DNA of 64,000 bases from sequence record MZ234015.1; one strand, 5' to 3'. Positions 4,350-37,781 of the stretch are shown here, in pieces. A program made the translations under genes and the position numbers. Each line of letters begins with the position of its first letter. Position 1 is the first letter of the stretch. The notes beneath the pieces are model-generated. The model was not told where the DNA came from, made no database searches, and saw nothing but the letters and a program-made list of their open reading frames with translations. Origin of the DNA: Escherichia phage vB_EcoP-101114BS3.

Positions 4350-4360
4350 TAATGTATATA
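4350..4360 (+). promoter_or_regulatory. TAATGTATATA motif, candidate phage promoter element
   Basis: TTATAATGTATATAGG lies ~45 nt upstream of ATG 4395; the same core recurs at 63122 (+) and 13480-13469 (-) at comparable distances from start codons. Confidence 0.35.
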
Positions 4361-4394: not shown

Positions 4395-7300
4395 ATGGCT
4401 AATTTAAAATCGTGGGAAGAAGCTTCCAAAGCTCCTGCGTATCTGAACGCCTCTCCAGAGCAACAGGCTCAAATGAGAGAACAATACAAGGCAGCAGGGG
4501 GCACTATTCCTGAGACTCAACCACAAGAGCAACCACAACAAGAAGAACGAGGTGCTATTGGGGAGTTTGCTCAAGGTGTGTCTAACGCTCTTCAATCAGG
4601 TGGTGCTAACATTGCAGCTAGTGCTGCTAAAGGTTTAGGTGGGCTGGTAGAGATTGGTGAAAACTTAACTGGTTCGGAAACAAGCTATGGTAAGCGCATT
4701 CAAGAGAACTCTAAACAGTTGCTGGAAGAACGCTTATCTAAGATAGAAGATGGTTTTGGTAAAACAGCTGGTCAGTATGCTGGTGTTGCTGCTGATATTG
4801 GTTTGACAGTTGCAAACCCTGCTGTTGCTGCTGCTGTTATCGCAGCTCGTGAAACAGGTCGTGCTTATGCTGATCAAACTCCTAAAGAAGATGAAGATAA
4901 ATCAGTCTTAGATGCTGCTCTTGTTGGTGGTGCTAACTACGCTGCTCAGAAGATCCTTCCGGGCATGACTGGTACAGCTTCTACTACTCTTGGTCGTGTA
5001 GGACAAAGCGTAGCCTCTAACGCAGTTGCTGGTGCTAAGGGTGGTGCTATTGTTGGTGCTGCTGAAGCTCAGAACAAATATGGGGATGACACTACTCTAG
5101 CTAACGTATTAGAAGGGGCTATTGAAGAGGGTGCACTCGGTGCTGCTTATGGTGGGGCGATTGGTGGGGTTCATGGGTTAATAAGCCGTCCTAGCCCTCA
5201 AGTGTTTGATCGTACTCCTGAGCATGTTAAGACTGACATTGCTGCTGAAGATGAGGCTATTCGTAAAGCTGCTAACGCTGATGAACTTCGTGAAGCCTAT
5301 GCTAAAGCTGAGAATGCTAATGCTGCCTCTGCTTTAAACCTTCTGGATGAAAATGGTTTCCGAATCACAGATGCAGTTGCTATGGACTCTCCTGCTGTTC
5401 AGCGTATATTAAATACAGACCAAAGTCGTGCAGAGAAAGCTGCTACGGTTCAGAAAGATAGCTCTAATGTTCCCGGTCTCAATCCTCTCGCTTCTCCTAA
5501 GAAGACTCAAGGTAAAGCTTTTGCTGACAATGAGTACAACCAGAAACAAGCTGTGGCAATGAAAGATGCAATGGCTGACTACACTAAAGATAACACCAAA
5601 GCCCTTACTGATGTTCTAGACAACCTAGACCGAGAGTTAGTAGCTCTGAGAGCAAGTGGTGATTTTACTGGTAGTGCTATTGACATTAAAAACCGTACTC
5701 AAGCTGATCGTGATTTTATTGATGCTTATAAAACTTTTTACAGTGAAGCTAATCGTTTCAAAGCTCGTGATGGTGAAGACCTAAACAACTTCATTGATAA
5801 AGCTACTCAGTTGCAGAAGCTATCTGAAAATGTTTCTCCAGAAATGAAGAAGGCCATTGGTGGATTAAAGAAACTAAAAGGTATGCCTGAAGGTTTTAAC
5901 CCTATCCAAGATGCTTTCACTCTGAATAATACAGCTAAGTTCATGAGTAACCAAGACCGTGGTTGGACCTCTCTGACTGATGACGGTTTTCGTGAAGCTC
6001 CGGCTCCTGTGTTAGTTAAGAATCCTCTCGGTGCAGCCAAGTATGTACTTAACCGCTTTACTTCCGATCGTGCTCGTGCTCAACGTGAGAAGCAACAGTC
6101 AGCTAATAGTGAAGCTATCCGCTCTTTGGCTAGGGCTGATTTAGAAGTACAACGAGCTAGGACTCAGGCTGAAGAAGCAAGAGCAAAAATGGAAGAAGAA
6201 CCAACCACAGAAGACATCAAATTCCGTACTCAAAATGATGCACCTTCCGAACCGGTTCGTGAGGAGCCTTCTGCTACTACTGTGACGGAAGAAATTCCGT
6301 CCTCTCCAGCTCCAACTGAAACACCTCTTACTGCGAGGGATTTGGTTGCTCAAAGACGTGCTCTCCAACAAGCAGAGCTTAGACGTCAAGAAGCTGAAGC
6401 TGCTCAGGCTCAAGAAAGTGCTACACCAGAACCTGAACCACAGCAAGAAGCTCTTACAGCTAGAGAATTAGTAGCTCAGCGTAGGGCTGTAGCAGAGGCT
6501 AAGAAACGTCAAGAGGCAGAAGAAGCAGAACGTGCTAAAGAAGCTCCTGAGGAAGCCGTAGAAGAGCCTAAAGAGAAACCTGAGCCATTACCTGCTCGTG
6601 CTCCTAAAGCTCCTGAGAAGGCTCCTGAGCCTGTTAAACCGTCACTTGGTGTAGAGCGTCTAGCTTCTATGTCAACTGCTGCTCGTCAAGCAACGAAAGA
6701 CCGTGCTGATCGATTTGCTCGTTCTTTGTATTCGGCTGCTGCTAAAGCTAAAGCCACTGCGGAAAATTTCCTTTCTTACAAGGGAGATCCTAAAGAGCTT
6801 ATGCGTCGTATCCGTCAGGAAGACCAAGCAAACAACACACAGCGTCATGAAGAGATGGCTAGAAACCAACTAGCTTCACAGCAAGGCATTGCTTCTGCTA
6901 AATCTCAACATGTTCGTGCTTCTTTTGCTGATTGGGTGAAAGAACGTGGGTTGCCTTCTGATATTGCTACTAAGGCTTTACGGGCTGAAGAGAAAGGTTT
7001 AGGTGGGAACGTCACAAGTCTAGATTCACTGAAGCGAAGAGCTGAGCGTTTATATCAGAAACAAAGAGATGATGAGTTTGACCGTCTCTATCGAGAGGCT
7101 CTGGAAGAGAATAAAGCTTTTGATAAGAGAGATGCTCCTAAACTGGTAGACCAGAAGAAAGAGCTTCAGGATGAAATTGGTGCGTTGCTTGATGCTGAAC
7201 CGTTACGTCCTGCTCAGAAAGATGCTATGCGTAGGATTATGGAAGACTTCGTGGAGAGTAAGTTTAAATCTTCAGAGAAAGCTGGAAGGGTTGAGGCTTT

Positions 7301-25293: not shown

Positions 25294-25827
25294 TTATACA
25301 CCCTTAGATGCAACTACACCATTACTGCCGTTGTATCGACCCTTCACTGCATAAGAGTCATCACCAGCGTGAGAGTGTTCGAACATAACCATTTGACCAA
25401 CACGCATCCCAGCACGAACTCGTAAGCTATGATTATGGGTAACGTTATGAAATTCAAAGGTTAGTTTACTGCTGTTAAACCCTGCATCAGCCCAACCAGC
25501 ATGGAGGTGGTTTAAACCACAACGAGCCATTGAGGAGCGAAGTACAAACAGGCTTGAGATGTTATCTGGAAGGTTAAACTCTTCCATTGAGTGCGCTAAG
25601 AAGAATTGCCCCGGAGTGATAACAATACCATCTTCAGGGATTTTTACTTCTTTCCACTTGAGGTTTTCTTTAGCATCAATGTCAACAATTCCGTCAGCCT
25701 GTTCTTCAACAAGGATAGTATCACCAATACGGATATCCACGCTAGCAGCGTTAACATATTTATGCTCCGCATCTAAAAAGCCATTATCAATAACGCTGTG
25801 TAATTCTTGAGAACCTAAAAGACTCAT
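25294..25827 (-). CDS. dcd: dCTP deaminase family protein
   Basis: FVLRSSMARCGLNHLHAGWADAGFNS...GMRVGQMVMFE matches the dCTP deaminase/dUTPase-fold signature. Confidence 0.75.
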   Translation of the reverse strand: MSLLGSQELHSVIDNGFLDAEHKYVNAASVDIRIGDTILVEEQADGIVDIDAKENLKWKEVKIPEDGIVITPGQFFLAHSMEEFNLPDNISSLFVLRSSMARCGLNHLHAGWADAGFNSSKLTFEFHNVTHNHSLRVRAGMRVGQMVMFEHSHAGDDSYAVKGRYNGSNGVVASKGV

Positions 25828-27287
25828 GAGTTTCTGTTTCCTTGTACAGATGATGCCAAATTATTAATCATGTTACGAGCTGTTTCACGAGATAGTGTAA
25901 CACCTGCTAAGTTGTTATGAAGCTCACCAGATAGCTCACGAGCAGCAGCTCGAAGTTCTGTACCAAGTGTAGTATCGGAGTGAGCCAAACCATTACGACG
26001 ACTATAAGGTCGAGGAGCTTCGTTAGCGTCATTAGCCAATGATGCAAAACCAATATGAGCAGCTTCACGAGACGCTATAGTTGACACTCGATCTTCCGTA
26101 GGGGTTGGCAAATCACCAACTTCTACACGTTCTATATCACCAGCACGTAGACCCTGAACGACTGAGCTTACTGTTTCCCATGAACGACGAGAACGCTGTA
26201 AATCACCCATTGACGGAGAAGAAGCAGGTCGAACAGTTACTCCACCTGTATCATGAGTGACATGCCATGTACGAGTATCCATTCCAGAAGAGCGTGCACT
26301 ACCAAAACTGCCAGTGAAAGTGTCACGAGGTGCCATTGTAGGAGGAACTGCGAATCTTTCCTGTTGCCAAGAATCGCGTCTGTTAGTTCCCGGAGTCCAA
26401 GGCTGCGTGATTGCTTCAGCACCTATAGTGGTTAATCCGCTAGACCATTCTGTCTGTAGGTTAACTTCCTCGTCCAGATAACTACGACCCCTTTCCTGAG
26501 GAATGTTTAATATAGTTTCCATCATCTTCAGGGTATAATGACGACGCTGATTCTGATATAAATTTACACCAGCCATAGGTCCAACTAAATCACTAATCAG
26601 GTGAACTTCTGGCTCACCGAAAGCTCCCATTGCAAGGTGCATATATTCGGTAGAACTGCTATAAACTGCAACAGTTGCTTCAGGCCACTTCTTGTGAACA
26701 TACTTCATTTCACGACCAGATACCACAGGAATGTCACGAGTGTATGACATTGCAAACAAACCTTCGTTTGACACATACATGTCATCAAGAGACATGAACC
26801 CCTGACAGATCATAGGAAAGCGACGGCTTAAAGTATCCATATCCAAAGGTAGATTAATCATCATCTGGATTTTAACTTGATCAATCTCAATTTCCAGAAT
26901 CTCTTGGAAAGTGAAAAGTGCTTCAGCGTAAGTTGTCCCACTAACAGGCTGAACTAGGCGAGATGTAGTTTGAAGCCCTTTACTCTCTGTCCAAGACAAG
27001 AAGTTGTCAAGGAACAGTGCAGCATTCATCACGTTAGCAGGGTTGTTTTCCTGACGGGTGTTCCAACGAAACCCTCCTTGGACTAGGAAGATATCCACAT
27101 CATTCGGAGTTCGGTTCTGGAAGAACGTATCACGGATAGCACCACCTGCAATAACAGGGTAGATACCATCAGGAACTACGTTGTCTCTGATCAGATTGCG
27201 AATCAGATCAAGCCCTACGCTGAGGGCTTCTCCTTCTTGAAGGTTTAATTCAGACAATGGAATCTTAATCATTTCTACATTTTCCAA
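25824..27287 (-). CDS. Nucleotidyltransferase (Pol-beta superfamily; CCA-adding / poly(A)-polymerase-like head) with long low-complexity C-terminus
   Basis: [14 protein letters not shown]...NDVDIFL matches the GGxVRD...DxD head-domain motif. Confidence 0.6.
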
Positions 27288-29642: not shown

Positions 29643-29849
29643 TTAGTAAAACGATCGTATTTCTTCCCACACATCATCTTGCAAGTTTCTAAAACCCTGC
29701 AAGGTTTGCTTTGTTCTGTGAATAAATTCTTCAGAGTGCTTATCAGGTGTGAGCATACTGACAAACTTTTCATAGCGATTAATCTTCCACCGCATCTTCA
29801 AGTAGTCAGATTCCAGCTTTCTTAACTTCTGCCTGTCAGTTACTGTCAT
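29643..29849 (-). CDS. Hypothetical protein
   Basis: Internal ATG at 29849 preceded by AGGTGAG; the longer ORF-track version (to 29945) overlaps the GGCT-like gene. Confidence 0.4.
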   Translation of the reverse strand: MTVTDRQKLRKLESDYLKMRWKINRYEKFVSMLTPDKHSEEFIHRTKQTLQGFRNLQDDVWEEIRSFY

Positions 29850-30267
29850 CCTTCTCACCTGCCAGATATGCTGTCCAGTCACCAGATTCAACCAGAACAT
29901 CTTGTTCTTCGTCGATGTGATAAATCCACGCTTCCACAGTTTCACCGCTGTCCAATAATACTGGAATCAGTGTACGCTTGTAAAAGGTGTATGGGTTATC
30001 ATTACCACGATGACCTTCCAGACCGTCATACGGACCTTCCAGACCAGCTTGGGTTGTTTCAAAGACTTCTACACGAACAGGCTTACCATTGCTGTCATGC
30101 TCCAAAGATACACTTGGGAAGTATGCTGTGCAATACTGATACAGGTTACAGTTGTTTACTGTCCACCCTTCACCAATAGACACACCACCTGCACGAGCAT
30201 TGATAGCGTGGTTGTGTTGACCTTTACGAAGAGAACCATACGTTGCAACTAATACTTTATCAGACAT
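29836..30267 (-). CDS. Gamma-glutamyl cyclotransferase-like (AIG2/GGCT fold) protein
   Basis: N-terminal VATYGSLRKGQHNH matches the YG[ST]L signature of GGCT-like proteins. Confidence 0.7.
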   Translation of the reverse strand: MSDKVLVATYGSLRKGQHNHAINARAGGVSIGEGWTVNNCNLYQYCTAYFPSVSLEHDSNGKPVRVEVFETTQAGLEGPYDGLEGHRGNDNPYTFYKRTLIPVLLDSGETVEAWIYHIDEEQDVLVESGDWTAYLAGEKDDSN

Positions 30268-31400: not shown

Positions 31401-32636
31401 TTACAGAGTTACTGCTACTTCGCTACCTTCAACATTGACAGACTCTAACTTGCGAGGGTTATGAATCTGGACTGGATTGACCGGAACGTTCCAACCACTG
31501 CGGTAGAAGTTACGACCATCACAGAACAAAATGACATTGGCAGACATTGCATTCGGTTGAAGGTTGTTGTGGACGTGACGGATATCTGCAATCCAGTAAC
31601 CACGAGACAAAGTGTAACCAGTAGGTGCATTACGAATAGTTTGAGTATTCATCTGACCTTCTAGCTGCATTTCTTCAGGAACTACATCTACCGAATCAAC
31701 CGGCTGTGCTACTTGTCCTTCCAGTGCAAAGTTTTCATCATCAGCACTTTCAATATCATCCACTAACTCACCGTCTCCATCTTCAATCGGAGTCTGGTAA
31801 ACCACTTTATACTGAGGAGTATAGAGAGGGTTCTGAGCTTTAACAAACTCAAGAATGTTATGACGGTAGGTATCCAGAGTTGTACCAGTCAGGCCCGGTG
31901 CTGTATTAACTTCCAGTACCCACGCTTCTTGACCTTTGGTGATAATATCAACTGCACCGAAATCCAGACCCATTGATTCAACAGCTTTCACTGCATTGAT
32001 CAGAGAGGCGTCATTCGGAGCATCTGTGAAGGAGCTTGAGTAAACCCAGCCAGTGTGGTGATTACGAATATCTTCACGATAGTTAGGGTCTTCGCGATAA
32101 CCATTGCGACGAATCTTCTTCTGAACATAGGTGATTACACCTTTGAACACATGGACACGCCACTCACGACGTGGGCCTTGAATGCCTTTAGTGTACAGTT
32201 CAGCTCGACCAAGACCATCACCCGGTTCTACAACAACAATGCCCGAACCAGAGTGACCAGTCAGCTCATGGCGCTCATACACAATATTACCAGTGTTTGA
32301 CCACTCTTGAGCAGTCTCTTGAACATCTGTGTATTCCACAGTTTTAACACCTGCTTGGTCCATCACGCTGAAAGCACGACGTTTGTTCGCTGCCATATGT
32401 AAGGCTGCGGTACGGTTAAGGACGGTTGCAGAACCAAAGAATGATTCAGGATAGCGACGGTTCCCGTAGTTAACAACCACATCACCTTCACGAGAACGCC
32501 AGCGGCTATTCTCTGAAAGAAGACCCATCACGTTAGCATTGATGCGTTCATCACGGATAGTATCACTGATAGCAGATACTAGAGCGTTAACAGAATCAGA
32601 CGGGCCATACGGAAGAACACGGATACGAGTAGTCAT
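31401..32636 (-). CDS. ATP-grasp ligase (RimK-like)
   Basis: GHSGSGIVVV (ATP-binding loop) and WVLEVNTAPGL motifs. Confidence 0.75.
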   Translation of the reverse strand: MTTRIRVLPYGPSDSVNALVSAISDTIRDERINANVMGLLSENSRWRSREGDVVVNYGNRRYPESFFGSATVLNRTAALHMAANKRRAFSVMDQAGVKTVEYTDVQETAQEWSNTGNIVYERHELTGHSGSGIVVVEPGDGLGRAELYTKGIQGPRREWRVHVFKGVITYVQKKIRRNGYREDPNYREDIRNHHTGWVYSSSFTDAPNDASLINAVKAVESMGLDFGAVDIITKGQEAWVLEVNTAPGLTGTTLDTYRHNILEFVKAQNPLYTPQYKVVYQTPIEDGDGELVDDIESADDENFALEGQVAQPVDSVDVVPEEMQLEGQMNTQTIRNAPTGYTLSRGYWIADIRHVHNNLQPNAMSANVILFCDGRNFYRSGWNVPVNPVQIHNPRKLESVNVEGSEVAVTL

Positions 32637-32638
32637 TT

Positions 32639-32869
32639 TTAGATACCTTTTAGTTTAAGAATTTCGTTACGACAGGATTGAATTTTAGCTTCGATTGCCC
32701 AATACTCAGCGAACATTTCGTCTTCTTGGGCATCGCTTGGAGAGTCGATTAAGTTAAAAGCAAACGGATACAGCTTTCGCTGCTCCGTTACCAGTTGTTG
32801 AAGTCGGAGTTGTTGATACTCCAGCATTGTCAGGTGAGGCTTAGCTCCCTTGCTTGACATGAGGCTCAA
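32639..32869 (-). CDS. Hypothetical protein
   Basis: 76-aa ORF. Confidence 0.45.
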   Translation of the reverse strand: MSLMSSKGAKPHLTMLEYQQLRLQQLVTEQRKLYPFAFNLIDSPSDAQEDEMFAEYWAIEAKIQSCRNEILKLKGI

Positions 32870-33074
32870 CTTTAATCCCCTTCATTTTAACATAGTCAGC
32901 CAACACGTTATTGATAACGGTTGGAAAAGGGATTTCTACTGGAGAGTCAACCAGCTTCCCAATACCTTCTTGCATCCACTTCTGGATTGCTCGGAGGTTA
33001 TCACATCCTGTGCTTGTCATCGGAATACGGCGGGTAGTTACCACGTTATCCAACATCAGTTTACGAACTTCCAT
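32841..33074 (-). CDS. Hypothetical protein
   Basis: 77-aa ORF. Confidence 0.45.
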   Translation of the reverse strand: MEVRKLMLDNVVTTRRIPMTSTGCDNLRAIQKWMQEGIGKLVDSPVEIPFPTVINNVLADYVKMKGIKVEPHVKQGS

Positions 33075-33085
33075 AACTATACCTC

Positions 33086-35089
33086 TTAGTGTTTACCTTT
33101 ACAGTAATCTGAATTACAGATCACCCTGTTTTCTTTGTTCAGTGAGCAAGTTTCTGCATCACGCCACGGAATTTGTTTATAACAGACTGCACAAAACCCA
33201 ATTGAAGTCCAGAGGGCTTTTGTAAACTCAGCTGTTCGTTGTCCATCGTAACTGACAACTGTTTTTCGGAGAGAGGTTGACTTTTCTGGAAATGTCTCCG
33301 CTTTCTCAGCGGGTACCTCCTTTGGGGCATTCTTTGGACCATAAACAGAGATGGCATAAGTATCACCACCACGTTTTTCCAAATACGAATTAGGAACATC
33401 TGCAAGTGTGATGTCCCCTGAACGTTTTGCTGAGCTGACCATTACAATCATACGGCTAAGCATACGTTCATCAACACGAACAGCTACTTCAGGACGACGT
33501 GGGTTGGTTGTGTCTACTGCTTTAGTCCAAATATAACCTTCAGATAGAGTAACATTCTTTACTTTATCTTTGATTTCTTTGGAGCAGATATAACAAACGT
33601 CTTCACCACGAAGTTTACTCATTTCGTTGTCAAACTCGAAATCAGTCTTGACTTCACCACAGATAGCACATACACCCAAAGGCACATCTTCTTCCTCTTC
33701 AGAGGTTTTAGATAACGCTTCGAAGCATTCTGGATGCCAGTATGCCTGATAAGCAAACACAGCCTTACGAGCATCTTTCCAGTCAATGTGCTTATCACAA
33801 CCACCACAGTCACCATGAGAGTGAGATTCCCAGAACTTACGAGTGACTTCTACACCATTCTTAGTGATGAAGGAGTCCTCTGCATCAAAAGGGATATCAT
33901 CATCAAAATCAGCAGTAGTGCTTTGAGGCTCCTTATCTGTAGCATCAACAAACAGCCCTGAAGTTAGTACGAGGCGAATCATACTGTCCACTTCGGAGAT
34001 ACAAGCAATCGTCCCGCGATATACTACCTTTGGGTTTTCAAGAGCCTTAAGATATTCATCTTTGGCTACGTTGTGAACATCCCCTTCGACATACTCTTGA
34101 GCTTTATCATCGTAGATGTAACCAACCATCTTACCACGATCTGTGTTGTTATAAGCATGGAACTCGTGAGGAATAATATCCACACGACCATCACGACGAT
34201 AAGGAAGACCGCGATCGGCAGCCAGTTTGTTCTGGTCTTCAATCGCTTTACGACGACGAATGTCTCCGCTTGTCACGCCGGGCTTGTCGTCTTTGTTTCC
34301 GTAAATGTCGCTTGTGCTGCTGCTTGATTTGTTTGTCTGTTGGTTCTGATAAAGAGAGGAGTTCGAGTAATAGCCGCCCCAGCGACTCGTTACCGTAAAA
34401 ACCGGAAGCGTGTGCTCCACCTCTTGAACCAGAGTCATACGACTGTTAGACACATCAAAGATATACTCAGTTCCCACTTTACATTCGAAGTGGTCATTGA
34501 TATGGTTCTTATGGGACTTAGAACGCTCTAAAATCCACATAAGCATAGCTTCTTCAGAAGCTCCAAACCAATCCAAACCACAGCGGGCTAGGTGGAAAGG
34601 ACGCTCATCATTACGGATAATGTGAAGTGTGTTGTCTTTAGCATCATGCCAAATCAAAGTGAATGCACCATCCAGTTTTTGGATAGTCTCTGCTGCTCCA
34701 ATGGTGTTAATTGAGTGGCAGATGTTTTCACTATCAACTTCGAAACGCTTACTGTCAGGAAGGAGATCTTGATCTAACAGGGTTCCATTATGAACCAGAG
34801 TAATATCCCCGTGAGTAAATGGGTGAGCATTTCGAGCATTGACAGCCCCACGAGTGGCATGTCGGCTGTGACCAACAATCCACGAAGGAGGAACTACGTA
34901 GTTCGTAAGCCCTTTGGTAATATTTGTATATTCTGTCTGGAGCATAAAAGCATAAGAAGGAAGAGCTTCTTTATAAGAGAAGACTTGCTTTTCACCTTTA
35001 CGCTGACCAAACACACCAGTTGAGTGCTGTCCACGGAAAACACCAGCATACAGAAGTTGGTTGAAAATGTCCAAATCTGCTGAGGTCAT
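33086..35089 (-). CDS. Class-II glutamine amidotransferase-like (Ntn-hydrolase) domain protein with C-terminal multi-CxxC zinc-ribbon region
   Basis: GHSRHATRGAVNARNAHPF and LVHNGTL match GATase-II motifs; C-terminus has CGGC, CAIC, CYIC, CAVC pairs; predicted N-terminus MTSADLD lacks the usual Cys2. Confidence 0.65.
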   Translation of the reverse strand: MTSADLDIFNQLLYAGVFRGQHSTGVFGQRKGEKQVFSYKEALPSYAFMLQTEYTNITKGLTNYVVPPSWIVGHSRHATRGAVNARNAHPFTHGDITLVHNGTLLDQDLLPDSKRFEVDSENICHSINTIGAAETIQKLDGAFTLIWHDAKDNTLHIIRNDERPFHLARCGLDWFGASEEAMLMWILERSKSHKNHINDHFECKVGTEYIFDVSNSRMTLVQEVEHTLPVFTVTSRWGGYYSNSSLYQNQQTNKSSSSTSDIYGNKDDKPGVTSGDIRRRKAIEDQNKLAADRGLPYRRDGRVDIIPHEFHAYNNTDRGKMVGYIYDDKAQEYVEGDVHNVAKDEYLKALENPKVVYRGTIACISEVDSMIRLVLTSGLFVDATDKEPQSTTADFDDDIPFDAEDSFITKNGVEVTRKFWESHSHGDCGGCDKHIDWKDARKAVFAYQAYWHPECFEALSKTSEEEEDVPLGVCAICGEVKTDFEFDNEMSKLRGEDVCYICSKEIKDKVKNVTLSEGYIWTKAVDTTNPRRPEVAVRVDERMLSRMIVMVSSAKRSGDITLADVPNSYLEKRGGDTYAISVYGPKNAPKEVPAEKAETFPEKSTSLRKTVVSYDGQRTAEFTKALWTSIGFCAVCYKQIPWRDAETCSLNKENRVICNSDYCKGKH

Positions 35090-35196
35090 GTTGCCGCCAG
35101 CTAATACGATACCACAAATTTTCTAATCCACCTGAAGGGTAAACCCTTTCATCTAATTAACCTTTAAATGCGCCCTGTATAAGAGCGCCCGTTGTG

Positions 35197-36297
35197 TTAC
35201 AGCAGTCGTTCTAATTGCATTTCCAGATGGTCTGGAATATAACCAGTGACGTTATCATCACTGCTACCTGATTCACGCATCAATGCAAACATGTGACGAA
35301 TTTCACGAACCGTTGCGATTCGAGTGCTTTCAATCTGAGGGGTGTAGTAGGTCATGATCTCTTCGTAGACACTGTTGGCATTACCGCGCACATATCCCAA
35401 GAAACCATAGAAGTCATTCATATCACGTAAGTTGATAAGGACTTCACCATCAGGGCCAGTCTGTTGCACACGAACACGACCAACCAAAGTTACAGATTGC
35501 TCACGACAGAAGAGAATATCACGAGCAAGACGATACCCTTCAGTGAGATCACTGTCTCTTGGAGTATAGTCTAGGGGTAGATGTTGAATCATAGGAGCGA
35601 AGCGCAGCTCATTCAACTTCTCAACATAAGCTTCATTGTCTAAATCTGCATATTCAACAGCCAGTTTCTTGAGAACCAAGAAGCGGTTGACCAGATTCAG
35701 AAGTTGGCTCTTTTTCCACTTCGGCTCTGAGATACGGAACTCAACAGAACCAAATTGAGATAGAGGCAAAAGATTAAGGGAGGTGTATTTATCCCAGCTA
35801 TTAACAAGAGAGTGGAAGAAAGCTTCCCCGTCTCGGTTGAACGCTGACGAAGCATTCATAACTTGTGCTTGAACGACAGCAAAAGCTGGACAGAAGTTGC
35901 TACGATAGCGATGGTATCCAGAACATTTGAACATCATCTTTTCATAGAACGTCCATCCAAGAATAACTTTCTTAAGGATATTACTATCAGCGTCACGCAT
36001 ATCCATATGAACGTGAGTGGAGCAGCGCCAAGTTCCCTCGGCTCCAGAATCCTGTACTGCTTCACTCAGATTGTTAATAGCACGAAGTAATTCTTCACCG
36101 TTGTAAGGTCGTGCACATACTAATTCACAACCATCACGAAGAGAGCCATCTTCAGTACAAACCCACATATCAGCGTCAATGTCAGTTGTACCTTCGACTT
36201 CTAACTCAATACCAACACCACACTGAAAAGCAATACTTGGATGCGGTTCAGATAAGCGAGGGTTACGGTATCCAAAAACTTGTGCTACGGTTGTCAT
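35197..36297 (-). CDS. Amidoligase-like (carboxylate-amine ligase, GCS2/glutamine-synthetase-like fold) protein
   Basis: GVGIELEVEG near the N-terminus and GSVEFRISEP later resemble amidoligase motifs. Confidence 0.55.
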   Translation of the reverse strand: MTTVAQVFGYRNPRLSEPHPSIAFQCGVGIELEVEGTTDIDADMWVCTEDGSLRDGCELVCARPYNGEELLRAINNLSEAVQDSGAEGTWRCSTHVHMDMRDADSNILKKVILGWTFYEKMMFKCSGYHRYRSNFCPAFAVVQAQVMNASSAFNRDGEAFFHSLVNSWDKYTSLNLLPLSQFGSVEFRISEPKWKKSQLLNLVNRFLVLKKLAVEYADLDNEAYVEKLNELRFAPMIQHLPLDYTPRDSDLTEGYRLARDILFCREQSVTLVGRVRVQQTGPDGEVLINLRDMNDFYGFLGYVRGNANSVYEEIMTYYTPQIESTRIATVREIRHMFALMRESGSSDDNVTGYIPDHLEMQLERLL

Positions 36298-36929: not shown

Positions 36930-37781
36930 TTATACAATCTGGAGTTTAGAGGAGAATTTATCTGCTTCTTTAACATCGTTACTGTTGATGATGTTGTGAA
37001 GCTTTTCAATTGGAAGGCGAGAGTGAAGTGACATCAATACTTCCATATCACAGCCTTGAACAACCTTATCAACTTGCTCATAAACAAACTTGCGGGTTGA
37101 CTTCTCGCCAATCCAGAAGTTAGAAAGAGAACGATATTCAATACCGTAATCCTTGTAACGAATGGCAGAAGCCTTTCCGTATAACTCTTTACGACGAGTG
37201 TCTTTATCCATGATTACAGCTGGCAAGGACAGGAAATAATCACACAACACACCCAACATCATTTGAGTTTGTCGAGTAATCTCTAAAGTCCCGGAGACAC
37301 CAAGGTGCACATGACCCCCAGCAGTACGCAAACCCTTATTAGTTGCGACCGGTGAAGGGTTCTTTTGTCCAGTGAAGGCATTGAAATCAGGAGTACAACC
37401 AAATACAAAGGCTGACGGATGGAAAGATTCAAGCTCTTCTGAAGTGAACACATGAGAGCTAATCCCAAGTGCTGCCTCCATGCCACGTTCATTGAGAACT
37501 TTGTTAGTCAGATCAATACCACGCTGAATGTTATCATCAAACGCTTCAAACCCTTCCTGTGGGTTAATATCAAACTCGGCCAGAACGTTGTCTTCTTGAA
37601 GACGAACATCAGGAGCCAGATCAATTTTATTGTCTTTAGAACAGCCCAGCTTACCAGCCACAGAGGTGATAATACCGGAAGCAGTACGAACAAACATTTC
37701 AGGGTCAGAGCCAATAAGGAAAGCGCGCTTAGTCATTGTAATACTCCACGAGTTCATCAAAAAGGGAAACAACACGAGCAC
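36930..37781 (-). CDS. Hypothetical protein (cassette member)
   Basis: 283-aa ORF; conserved-looking FLIGSDPEMF and GGHVHLG segments, function unknown. Confidence 0.55.
   Translation of the reverse strand: MLVLFPFLMNSWSITMTKRAFLIGSDPEMFVRTASGIITSVAGKLGCSKDNKIDLAPDVRLQEDNVLAEFDINPQEGFEAFDDNIQRGIDLTNKVLNERGMEAALGISSHVFTSEELESFHPSAFVFGCTPDFNAFTGQKNPSPVATNKGLRTAGGHVHLGVSGTLEITRQTQMMLGVLCDYFLSLPAVIMDKDTRRKELYGKASAIRYKDYGIEYRSLSNFWIGEKSTRKFVYEQVDKVVQGCDMEVLMSLHSRLPIEKLHNIINSNDVKEADKFSSKLQIV

Follow-up and report, generated by a model that had tools for sequence, protein, structure and literature searches.

A probable AUU start codon gives a phiEco32-like coliphage glutamine amidotransferase its N-terminal catalytic cysteine

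The 64,000-nucleotide stretch of Escherichia phage vB_EcoP-101114BS3 analysed here (sequence record MZ234015.1; hereafter the window) carries on its minus strand a gene that, judged by sequence comparison, very probably encodes a complete class-II (N-terminal nucleophile, Ntn) glutamine amidotransferase (GATase) of 677 codons initiated at AUU. The window is that of a phiEco32-like coliphage, Suseptimavirus 101114UKE3; over this region the DNA shows 100% identity to that of Escherichia phage vB_EcoP-101114UKE3 (Gordonclarkvirinae, Suseptimavirus) and 68-99% identity to that of other phiEco32-like podophages. The amidotransferase open reading frame (ORF) at 33086..35089 (-) is a genuine gene. 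Counted from a canonical start codon it is the longest ORF, encodes 667 aa and begins MTSADLD, as listed in the original prediction, which rightly recognised class-II glutamine amidotransferase motifs but took the N-terminal Cys nucleophile to be apparently lacking, and which offered as explanations a mis-set start, a Thr or Ser nucleophile, or a non-catalytic module. The start proved to be mis-set. The ORF list used for that first reading admitted ATG, GTG and TTG starts only, and the Cys was overlooked because its start codon is ATT, outside this canonical set.

Start codon and catalytic cysteine

Upstream of the listed ATG, the frame reads TAG AAA ATT TGT GGT ATC GTA TTA GCT GGC GGC AAC ATG, which translates as (stop) K I C G I V L A G G N M. 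The ATT (35119..35117) lies ten codons upstream of that ATG and one codon after the in-frame TAG, and the canonical class-II N-terminus Cys-Gly-Ile-Val is encoded directly after it. No longer protein is possible, and ATT is the sole candidate initiator with which the Cys is kept. An upstream in-frame start with Cys at residue 2 was the observation named beforehand as decisive against a missing nucleophile, and it is found here by way of a non-canonical codon; the nucleophile had appeared to be lacking because the start was placed at the canonical ATG. The sequence features of an AUU-initiated gene are present, namely an in-frame ATT, a Shine-Dalgarno (SD) sequence at a fitting distance, no canonical start, and upstream codons conserved as protein. 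Other ATT- or TTG-starting relatives have a strong SD equivalent at the same spacing. We infer that the ATT start is used in vivo, and removal of the initiator Met would then expose Cys as the catalytic N-terminal nucleophile.

Comparison with relatives was made at two levels. Among the N-termini of 120 homologs, ~85% start MCG[IL]V, and most of the remainder have I or L immediately before Cys via gene-caller extension or truncation. At the DNA level, starts were compared in 80 IMG/VR loci and in 8 distinct relatives from public sequencing-run assemblies (9 loci, L010 and L011 having the same gene). The codon before Cys-Gly was ATG in 67 of the IMG/VR loci, ATT in 11 and TTG in 1, and one further locus reads ATG TGC TGT GG, so that a Cys codon precedes Cys-Gly; the 8 further relatives have ATT in 3, TTG in 3 and ATG in 2. 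In the IMG/VR loci with ATT, an in-frame stop occurs 0-10 codons upstream with no canonical start between. Loci with ATT directly before the Cys codon include L040, L041, L078, L085, L090 and L092 (IMG/VR) as well as L009, L012 and L013. Across 15 relatives, codons 2-10 are variable at 9/9 third positions, 2/9 first positions and 1/9 second positions. In the encoded peptide, residues 2-9 are always CGIVLAGG and residue 10 is either Asn or Ser, a pattern that points to clear protein-level selection on the nine upstream codons.

Translation from the ATG at 35089 would leave a protein without Cys1, either a non-catalytic module binding glutamine or gamma-glutamyl groups or an enzyme with a Thr or Ser nucleophile. 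Although this is the longest ORF with a canonical start, is annotated in NC_070982 and SU7, and is the product of automated calls in a large protein database (P0001, 667 aa), we consider such a start extremely unlikely. It would delete residues 1-10, which in the structural model comprise the first beta-strand of the Ntn fold in addition to Cys1; Met11 is not conserved, most relatives having Leu at this residue and KBNP1711 lacking the ATG altogether; and the ATG lacks an SD, whereas a strong one precedes ATT. In addition, the nine upstream codons are kept as peptide while their third positions vary freely. Neither a Thr or Ser nucleophile nor a non-catalytic module is supported.

A second way to discount the AUU start would be to put the ATT down to a mistake in sequencing, or to a recent mutation that inactivated an ATG start and left a pseudogene in this phage. 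Most distant homologs do have ATG at this position, but 14 distinct Gordonclarkvirinae sequences, drawn from independent isolates and from metagenomes, share the identical ATT, this codon recurs in the unrelated lineages of the six IMG/VR loci named above, and the 677-codon frame is intact and conserved. This explanation is almost inconceivable and is effectively refuted by the comparative sequence data.

Glutaminase domain

With direct AUU initiation, the predicted protein begins with the Cys expected of a class-II amidotransferase, and homology searches agree with this assignment. Pfam GATase_6 matches residues 65-164 of the ORF (E 2.6e-14), GATase_7 and GATase_4 match more weakly, and the NCBIfam GlmS model aligns from residue 2 of the corrected protein. 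The motifs GHSRHATRG, NAHPF, LVHNG and VDSE align with Arg73/Thr76/His86/Asn98-Gly99/Asp123 of E. coli GlmS, the corresponding phage residues being R86, T89, H99, N111-G112 and D129. In an alignment of 66 homologs, C2, G3, R29, G30, R86, T89, H99, N111, G112 and D129 are invariant, and all glutamine-binding and oxyanion-hole residues are present. AlphaFold2 models residues 1-243 with a predicted local distance difference test (pLDDT) score >90 and gives the four-layer alpha-beta-beta-alpha Ntn fold. Foldseek matches the model to the GlmS glutaminase domain (1xff, E 8e-13, template-modelling (TM) score 0.69), to EgtC (TM 0.70-0.72) and also to PurF and asparagine synthetase (AsnS/ASNS), with E values ranging from 8e-13 to 1e-8 and target TM scores of ~0.7.

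Two observations weigh against a conventional amidotransferase. First, an RGxD (RGxDxxG) motif after the first helix is typical of class-II amidotransferases; the phage protein reads RGQHSTG, and its His (residue 32 of the corrected protein, ~35024-35026) is invariant in the 66 homologs. RGxH is a family-specific deviation that is not usually disqualifying. Second, the C-terminal 390 residues gave no match to any synthase, and no acceptor or synthase domain is fused to the protein. A possible explanation is that the acceptor is supplied in trans. Neither the two SIS domains of GlmS nor any other acceptor domain is present, and the names 'glutamine-fructose-6-phosphate aminotransferase' and GlmS are over-annotations because the match to the NCBIfam GlmS model (NF001484) reaches 41.5 bits against a cut-off of 381, over residues 2-194 only, and no SIS domain follows.

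C-terminal tail

The glutaminase domain is followed by a disordered linker (residues 244-282), an oligonucleotide/oligosaccharide-binding (OB)-fold barrel and three four-ligand zinc modules. The original prediction had counted at least five CxxC pairs in this tail and taken them for zinc ribbons binding nucleic acid or protein. The count needs correction, as there are four strict CxxC pairs (beginning at C438, C484, C509 and C643), one HxxC (H462-C465) and one Cx4C (C668-C673), which form three four-ligand sites; the zinc-binding tail itself stands in substance, in the form of three conserved Cys4/Cys3His modules of zinc-ribbon or treble-clef type, predicted to bind zinc, after the OB fold. 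The ligands are 90-100% conserved and lie in confidently modelled small domains, each with two knuckles contributing four predicted zinc ligands. Module 3 repeats module 1, the two sharing the pattern T.K.W....C..C...IP[FW]..A, and the alpha/beta insert between modules 2 and 3 (residues 525-595) is confined to the phiEco32-like subgroup.

The OB fold and zinc modules 1 and 2 are acidic (isoelectric point (pI) 4.5-5.7), with module 3 at pI 8.9, and because of this acidity nucleic-acid binding by the tail is not favoured; protein docking is at least as likely. Relatives of the OB-zinc region are all but absent outside the family: beyond orthologs, a search of 1.84 billion representatives returned only two weak hits, P0121 (a repeat protein of 1287 aa, E 4e-8) and P0123 (a fragment of 52 residues).

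Coordinates of the features described for the amidotransferase gene, its leader and its neighbours are collected in the table.

Table. Features of the amidotransferase locus in the window, with the evidence for each
Feature	Coordinates	Strand	Evidence or remarks
Corrected amidotransferase coding sequence (CDS), 677 codons + stop	33086..35119	-	In-frame TAG AAA ATT TGT GGT; homolog starts; annotation of phi32_83 and Bas87_0079
ATT initiator; Cys codon	35119..35117; 35116..35114	-	
Internal ATG (Met11)	35087..35089	-	No good SD upstream; Leu in most relatives; start in NC_070982
SD-like GGTGGA	35127..35132	-	7 nt upstream of ATT; invariant in 14 distinct Gordonclarkvirinae sequences
Leader hairpin UGAA(A)GGG-UUUA-CCCUUCA	35133..35151	-	Folds; 3' end directly at SD
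Conservation island (AU-rich box, hairpin, SD, UAG, ATT, first codons)	35100..35159	-	
AU-rich box TTAAAGGTTAATTAG	35153..35167	-	TTAAATGT(W)AA(W)TAG at same place in relatives
Terminator-like hairpin GCGCTCT-N5-AGGGCGC	35170..35188	-	Fold; 3' of amidoligase gene
Class-II (Ntn) glutaminase domain, residues 2-243	34391..35116	-	Pfam, NCBIfam GlmS model, AlphaFold2, Foldseek, invariant residues
Helix + OB-fold barrel, residues 284-394	33938..34270	-	
Zinc module 1, residues 415-475 (C438, C441, H462, C465)	33695..33877	-	Conserved columns; model; weak LIM match, E 0.007
Zinc module 2, residues 476-524 (C484, C487, C509, C512)	33548..33694	-	Conservation; model
Alpha/beta insert, residues 525-595	33335..33547	-	Gaps in distant homologs; model pLDDT ~90
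Zinc module 3, residues 617-677 (C643, C646, C668, C673)	33089..33271	-	Conserved columns; model
Amidoligase_2 (glutamine synthetase (GS)/glutamate-cysteine ligase (GCS)-like), upstream neighbour	35197..36297	-	Pfam 3.1e-8; PHROG 7469
COOH-NH2 ligase type 2 (phiEco32-like)	36930..37736	-	Pfam PF14395 2e-8; PHROG 3815
DUF7195 (77 aa) + 76-aa protein	32639-33074	-	Always between amidotransferase and ATP-grasp ligase
RimK/MptN-like alpha-L-glutamate-ligase-type ATP-grasp, downstream neighbour	31401..32636	-	Pfam; NCBIfam MptN 2.5e-9; rimK_fam
Gamma-glutamyl(amine) cyclotransferase (GGACT)	29836..30267	-	Pfam 8.9e-16; last recognisable cluster member

Leader and start-codon context

The leader preceding the ATT is better conserved in Gordonclarkvirinae than the gene's own coding sequence. 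Across the 14 distinct Gordonclarkvirinae sequences, 0/40 columns are variable at positions -40..-1 and 2/20 at 0..+19, compared to 5-18/20 variable columns (25-90%) per 20-nt block of flanking coding DNA. The leader contains a hairpin abutting the SD, and double compensatory changes preserve its stem in L009 (GGGC/GCCC) and L012 (AGAG/CUCU), while in L013 and L014 another hairpin takes its place. In 13/14 distinct non-ATG leaders a hairpin of this kind ends at -14..-16, and L040, L041, L085, L090 and L092 share a layout in which the hairpin reaches to -14..-16 and is followed by a strong, GGAGGA-like SD, a 7-nt spacer and ATT. Mean folding upstream of the SD was -6.6 kcal/mol for 14 distinct non-ATG leaders vs -2.6 kcal/mol for 52 ATG leaders (Mann-Whitney p 7e-5), a statistic that ignores the shared ancestry of the sequences. 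On a neighbour-joining tree, non-ATG starts are scattered over at least six lineages, and ATT starts, found in ~15% of distinct leaders, occur in several distant ones.

Several leaders merit separate mention. In recurrent ATT leaders the hairpin almost always ends 0-2 nt before a strong SD, and the TTG leaders L010, L014 and L093 resemble the ATT ones. In L016, an HNH homing-endonuclease gene (5582-5992) lies between the amidoligase and amidotransferase genes and displaces the leader; this copy of the amidotransferase has a TTG start and no hairpin.

Messenger RNAs starting with AUU are translated less efficiently, compete poorly and are sensitive to initiation factor 3 (IF3), guanosine tetraphosphate (ppGpp) and nutrient state, and conserved rare start codons are regarded as regulatory (PMC5499595). 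The weak AUU, the hairpin abutting the SD and the invariant leader would plausibly together form a translational throttle or control element that sets the amount of enzyme. The recurrence of a leader with hairpin, SD and ATT, and its extreme conservation, is a modest and apparently undescribed observation. Several results weigh against translation control: the window hairpin is weak by itself (-6.5 kcal/mol, z -0.2 vs shuffles), individual hairpins are unremarkable vs shuffles (z -0.2 to -2.6), the compensatory changes come from few distinct sequences only, and pattern scans of viral and metagenome sequences for leader variants gave identical leaders or chance hits only. The extreme conservation could also stem from a signal in the DNA itself, for instance a promoter or a site bound by a protein, instead of translation control. 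The leader occurs once in the window, with no repeats, and an Rfam search gave no hit near threshold.

The leader also bears on a third alternative to direct AUU initiation, in which translation starts at the ATG (35152..35150) of a mini-ORF, MKGFTLQVD, passes the UAG by readthrough or re-initiation, and yields a propeptide whose autocatalytic removal exposes Cys1. In L009, L010 and L012, UAU (Tyr) occupies the position of the UAG, so that the ORF is continuous (MKG[FL][TA]LQVDY[KS][IL]-CGIV) and gene callers use it, and a UAG one codon before the AUU is a geometry that could allow termination and re-initiation. Even so, this route is highly unlikely. The UAG is kept in all Gordonclarkvirinae sequences, and no suppressor tRNA is encoded in the window. 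Hairpin, SD and ATT or TTG persist in L013 and L014, which lack the mini-ORF, and the mini-ORF ATG lies partly within the stem and has no SD in relatives. The changes in the supposed peptide are paired changes (GGGU/ACCC to GGGC/GCCC or AGAGU/ACUCU), and because they preserve the stem, selection on the mini-ORF appears to act at the level of RNA and not of peptide. We therefore rejected the mini-ORF as a conserved peptide or propeptide and regard it as a by-product of the stem. A suppressor tRNA for the UAG was likewise dismissed, as the window scan found tRNA-Arg(UCU) only; this single phage tRNA gene lies at 43941-44016 (-).

Upstream of the hairpin, an AU-rich box could be a promoter or operator. 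Its form in relatives, TTAAATGT(W)AA(W)TAG, occurs once per locus in the divergent phages L009, L010, L012, L022, L023 and L026. The promoter consensus of the phiEco32 sigma factor gp36 is tAATGTAtA, and mapped promoters lie upstream of genes 6, 13, 26, 40, 58 and 68, not 83 (PMC8948821); the box does not match tAATGTAtA and was discarded as a gp36 promoter. Elsewhere in the window, the gp36 promoter element TAATGTATA matches at 4351(+), 13543(+), 63123(+), 13478(-) and 20035(-), including a divergent pair near 13.5 kb. Between the box and the amidoligase gene, the terminator-like hairpin has a compensatory version, GTGCCTC..GGGGCAC, in KBNP1711/phiEco32 and is annotated as a terminator in the phage 4E8 record.

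Operon and possible function

The amidotransferase gene is one of the closely spaced genes of a conserved minus-strand operon, which lies directly upstream of the replication module (primase/helicase, exonuclease, nucleotidyltransferase, dCTP deaminase). In every relative examined the genes follow one another in the same order: COOH-NH2 ligase type 2, a 208-aa protein, Amidoligase_2, GATase, DUF7195, a 76-aa protein, ATP-grasp and, further downstream, GGACT. The amidotransferase most plausibly serves as the glutamine-hydrolysing subunit of this operon, either donating ammonia or cleaving gamma-glutamyl groups, and would be tethered through its OB fold and zinc modules to partner enzymes or a macromolecular substrate. 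Possible roles of DUF7195 and the 76-aa protein in the pathway are those of carrier, tag or substrate. For the COOH-NH2 ligase, the listed ORF (36930-37781 (-)) opens with a GTG, but PHROG 3815 matches it from residue 16, and translation probably begins at the ATG at 37736, where the gene would overlap the end of its upstream neighbour. A defence-system library gave no hits for ten operon proteins, and searches of Pfam, NCBIfam, PHROG and the PDB yielded no functional lead for the neighbours of 208, 316 and 405 aa.

According to the account in PMC10580990, Iyer et al. 2009 proposed that the phiEco32 amidoligase and GATase genes modify the cell wall, blocking superinfection. Gordonclarkvirinae are markedly resistant to restriction-modification and have no known DNA-modification pathway (BASEL paper, PMC11990801); a tie between the operon and this resistance is pure speculation. 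Going further, one may imagine both that the leader of hairpin, SD and AUU is a dedicated, anciently conserved translational control device of phage Ntn-amidotransferase genes, for example a throttle sensitive to IF3 or ppGpp by which enzyme synthesis would follow the state of the infected cell, and that the GATase-OB-zinc protein, amidoligase, ATP-grasp and GGACT form a glutamyl or amide modification pathway directed at macromolecules (DNA, RNA or protein) which could underlie restriction-modification resistance; taken jointly, this proposal is unlikely.

Other genes in the window were also recorded. The dCTP deaminase and a 487-aa nucleotidyltransferase adjoin the replication genes at 25294-27287 (-), and these are the genes that the BASEL paper cites when speculating on DNA modification (PMC11990801). 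The 137-aa product of a gene at 41195-41608 (-) matches the ProQ/FinO family (E 1.1e-5; 25.8 bits, slightly below the Pfam cut-off of 27) and is possibly a phage RNA-hairpin-binding protein.

Public annotation

The gene is an unexceptional representative of a phage family already known, and the ATT start is already annotated in the type phage, in the phiEco32 RefSeq record (phi32_83), as well as in the curated Bas87 record (Bas87_0079). The RefSeq record of the window phage, NC_070982, annotates the shortened 667-aa CDS as 'aminotransferase', so the first reading of this DNA reproduced a public mis-annotation; the KBNP1711 RefSeq CDS (NC_023593) begins at a still later GTG. Starts are inconsistent across databases, with NC_070982, MZ342906 (SU7), NC_023593 (KBNP1711), P0001, P0002 and P0006 using a downstream ATG or GTG that gives products of 667, 627 or 563 aa without the catalytic Cys. 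The product name 'aminotransferase', like 'GlmS', is an over-annotation.

For this phage group, most public records and all automated calls drop 10-110 residues including the catalytic Cys, a truncation that invites false 'pseudoenzyme' readings, and many records also mislabel the protein GlmS. The enzyme belongs to a widespread phage amidoligase operon in phages resistant to restriction-modification, and its leader is a small and tractable test case for weak-start translation control under selection in phages.

Comparison with known systems

Like GlmS (1xff), PurF and AsnB/ASNS, the phage protein would have a Cys right after the initiator, the glutamine-binding and oxyanion residues and the four-layer Ntn fold. 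Unlike them, it has no fused SIS, phosphoribosyltransferase or synthetase domain, carries RGxH in place of RGxD, and ends in an OB fold and three zinc modules. In having a single glutaminase-type domain and no fused synthase it resembles EgtC/YafJ (GATase_4/6 type), with EgtC giving the best TM scores. EgtC acts on a gamma-glutamyl compound in a pathway with the GCS-like ligase EgtA, which parallels the amidoligase neighbours of the phage GATase. The EgtC model matches the phage sequence only marginally (E 0.006), however, and EgtC lacks the OB/zinc tail and has other pathway genes.

In Bacillus subtilis PurF, a propeptide is removed autocatalytically to expose Cys1. L009, L010 and L012 could in principle make a comparable 12-residue extension before Cys1, whereas in the window the UAG interrupts the extension and the evidence favours direct AUU initiation.

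For the start codon itself, the closest parallels are E. coli infC, through which IF3 is autoregulated, and Enterococcus faecalis ebpA, in which a conserved rare ATT lowers or regulates expression (PMC5499595, PMC4447247); ebpA, too, had its ATT start wrongly annotated at an ATG further downstream (PMC4447247). The present case differs in being a phage gene, and in that ATT recurs in distant lineages of one enzyme family together with a hairpin abutting a strong SD. Closest of all is the ortholog phi32_83 of phiEco32 (PHROG 4736), with 68% identity, the same operon and the same, already annotated ATT start; there is no difference in kind between the two, and the window gene is another member of that family.

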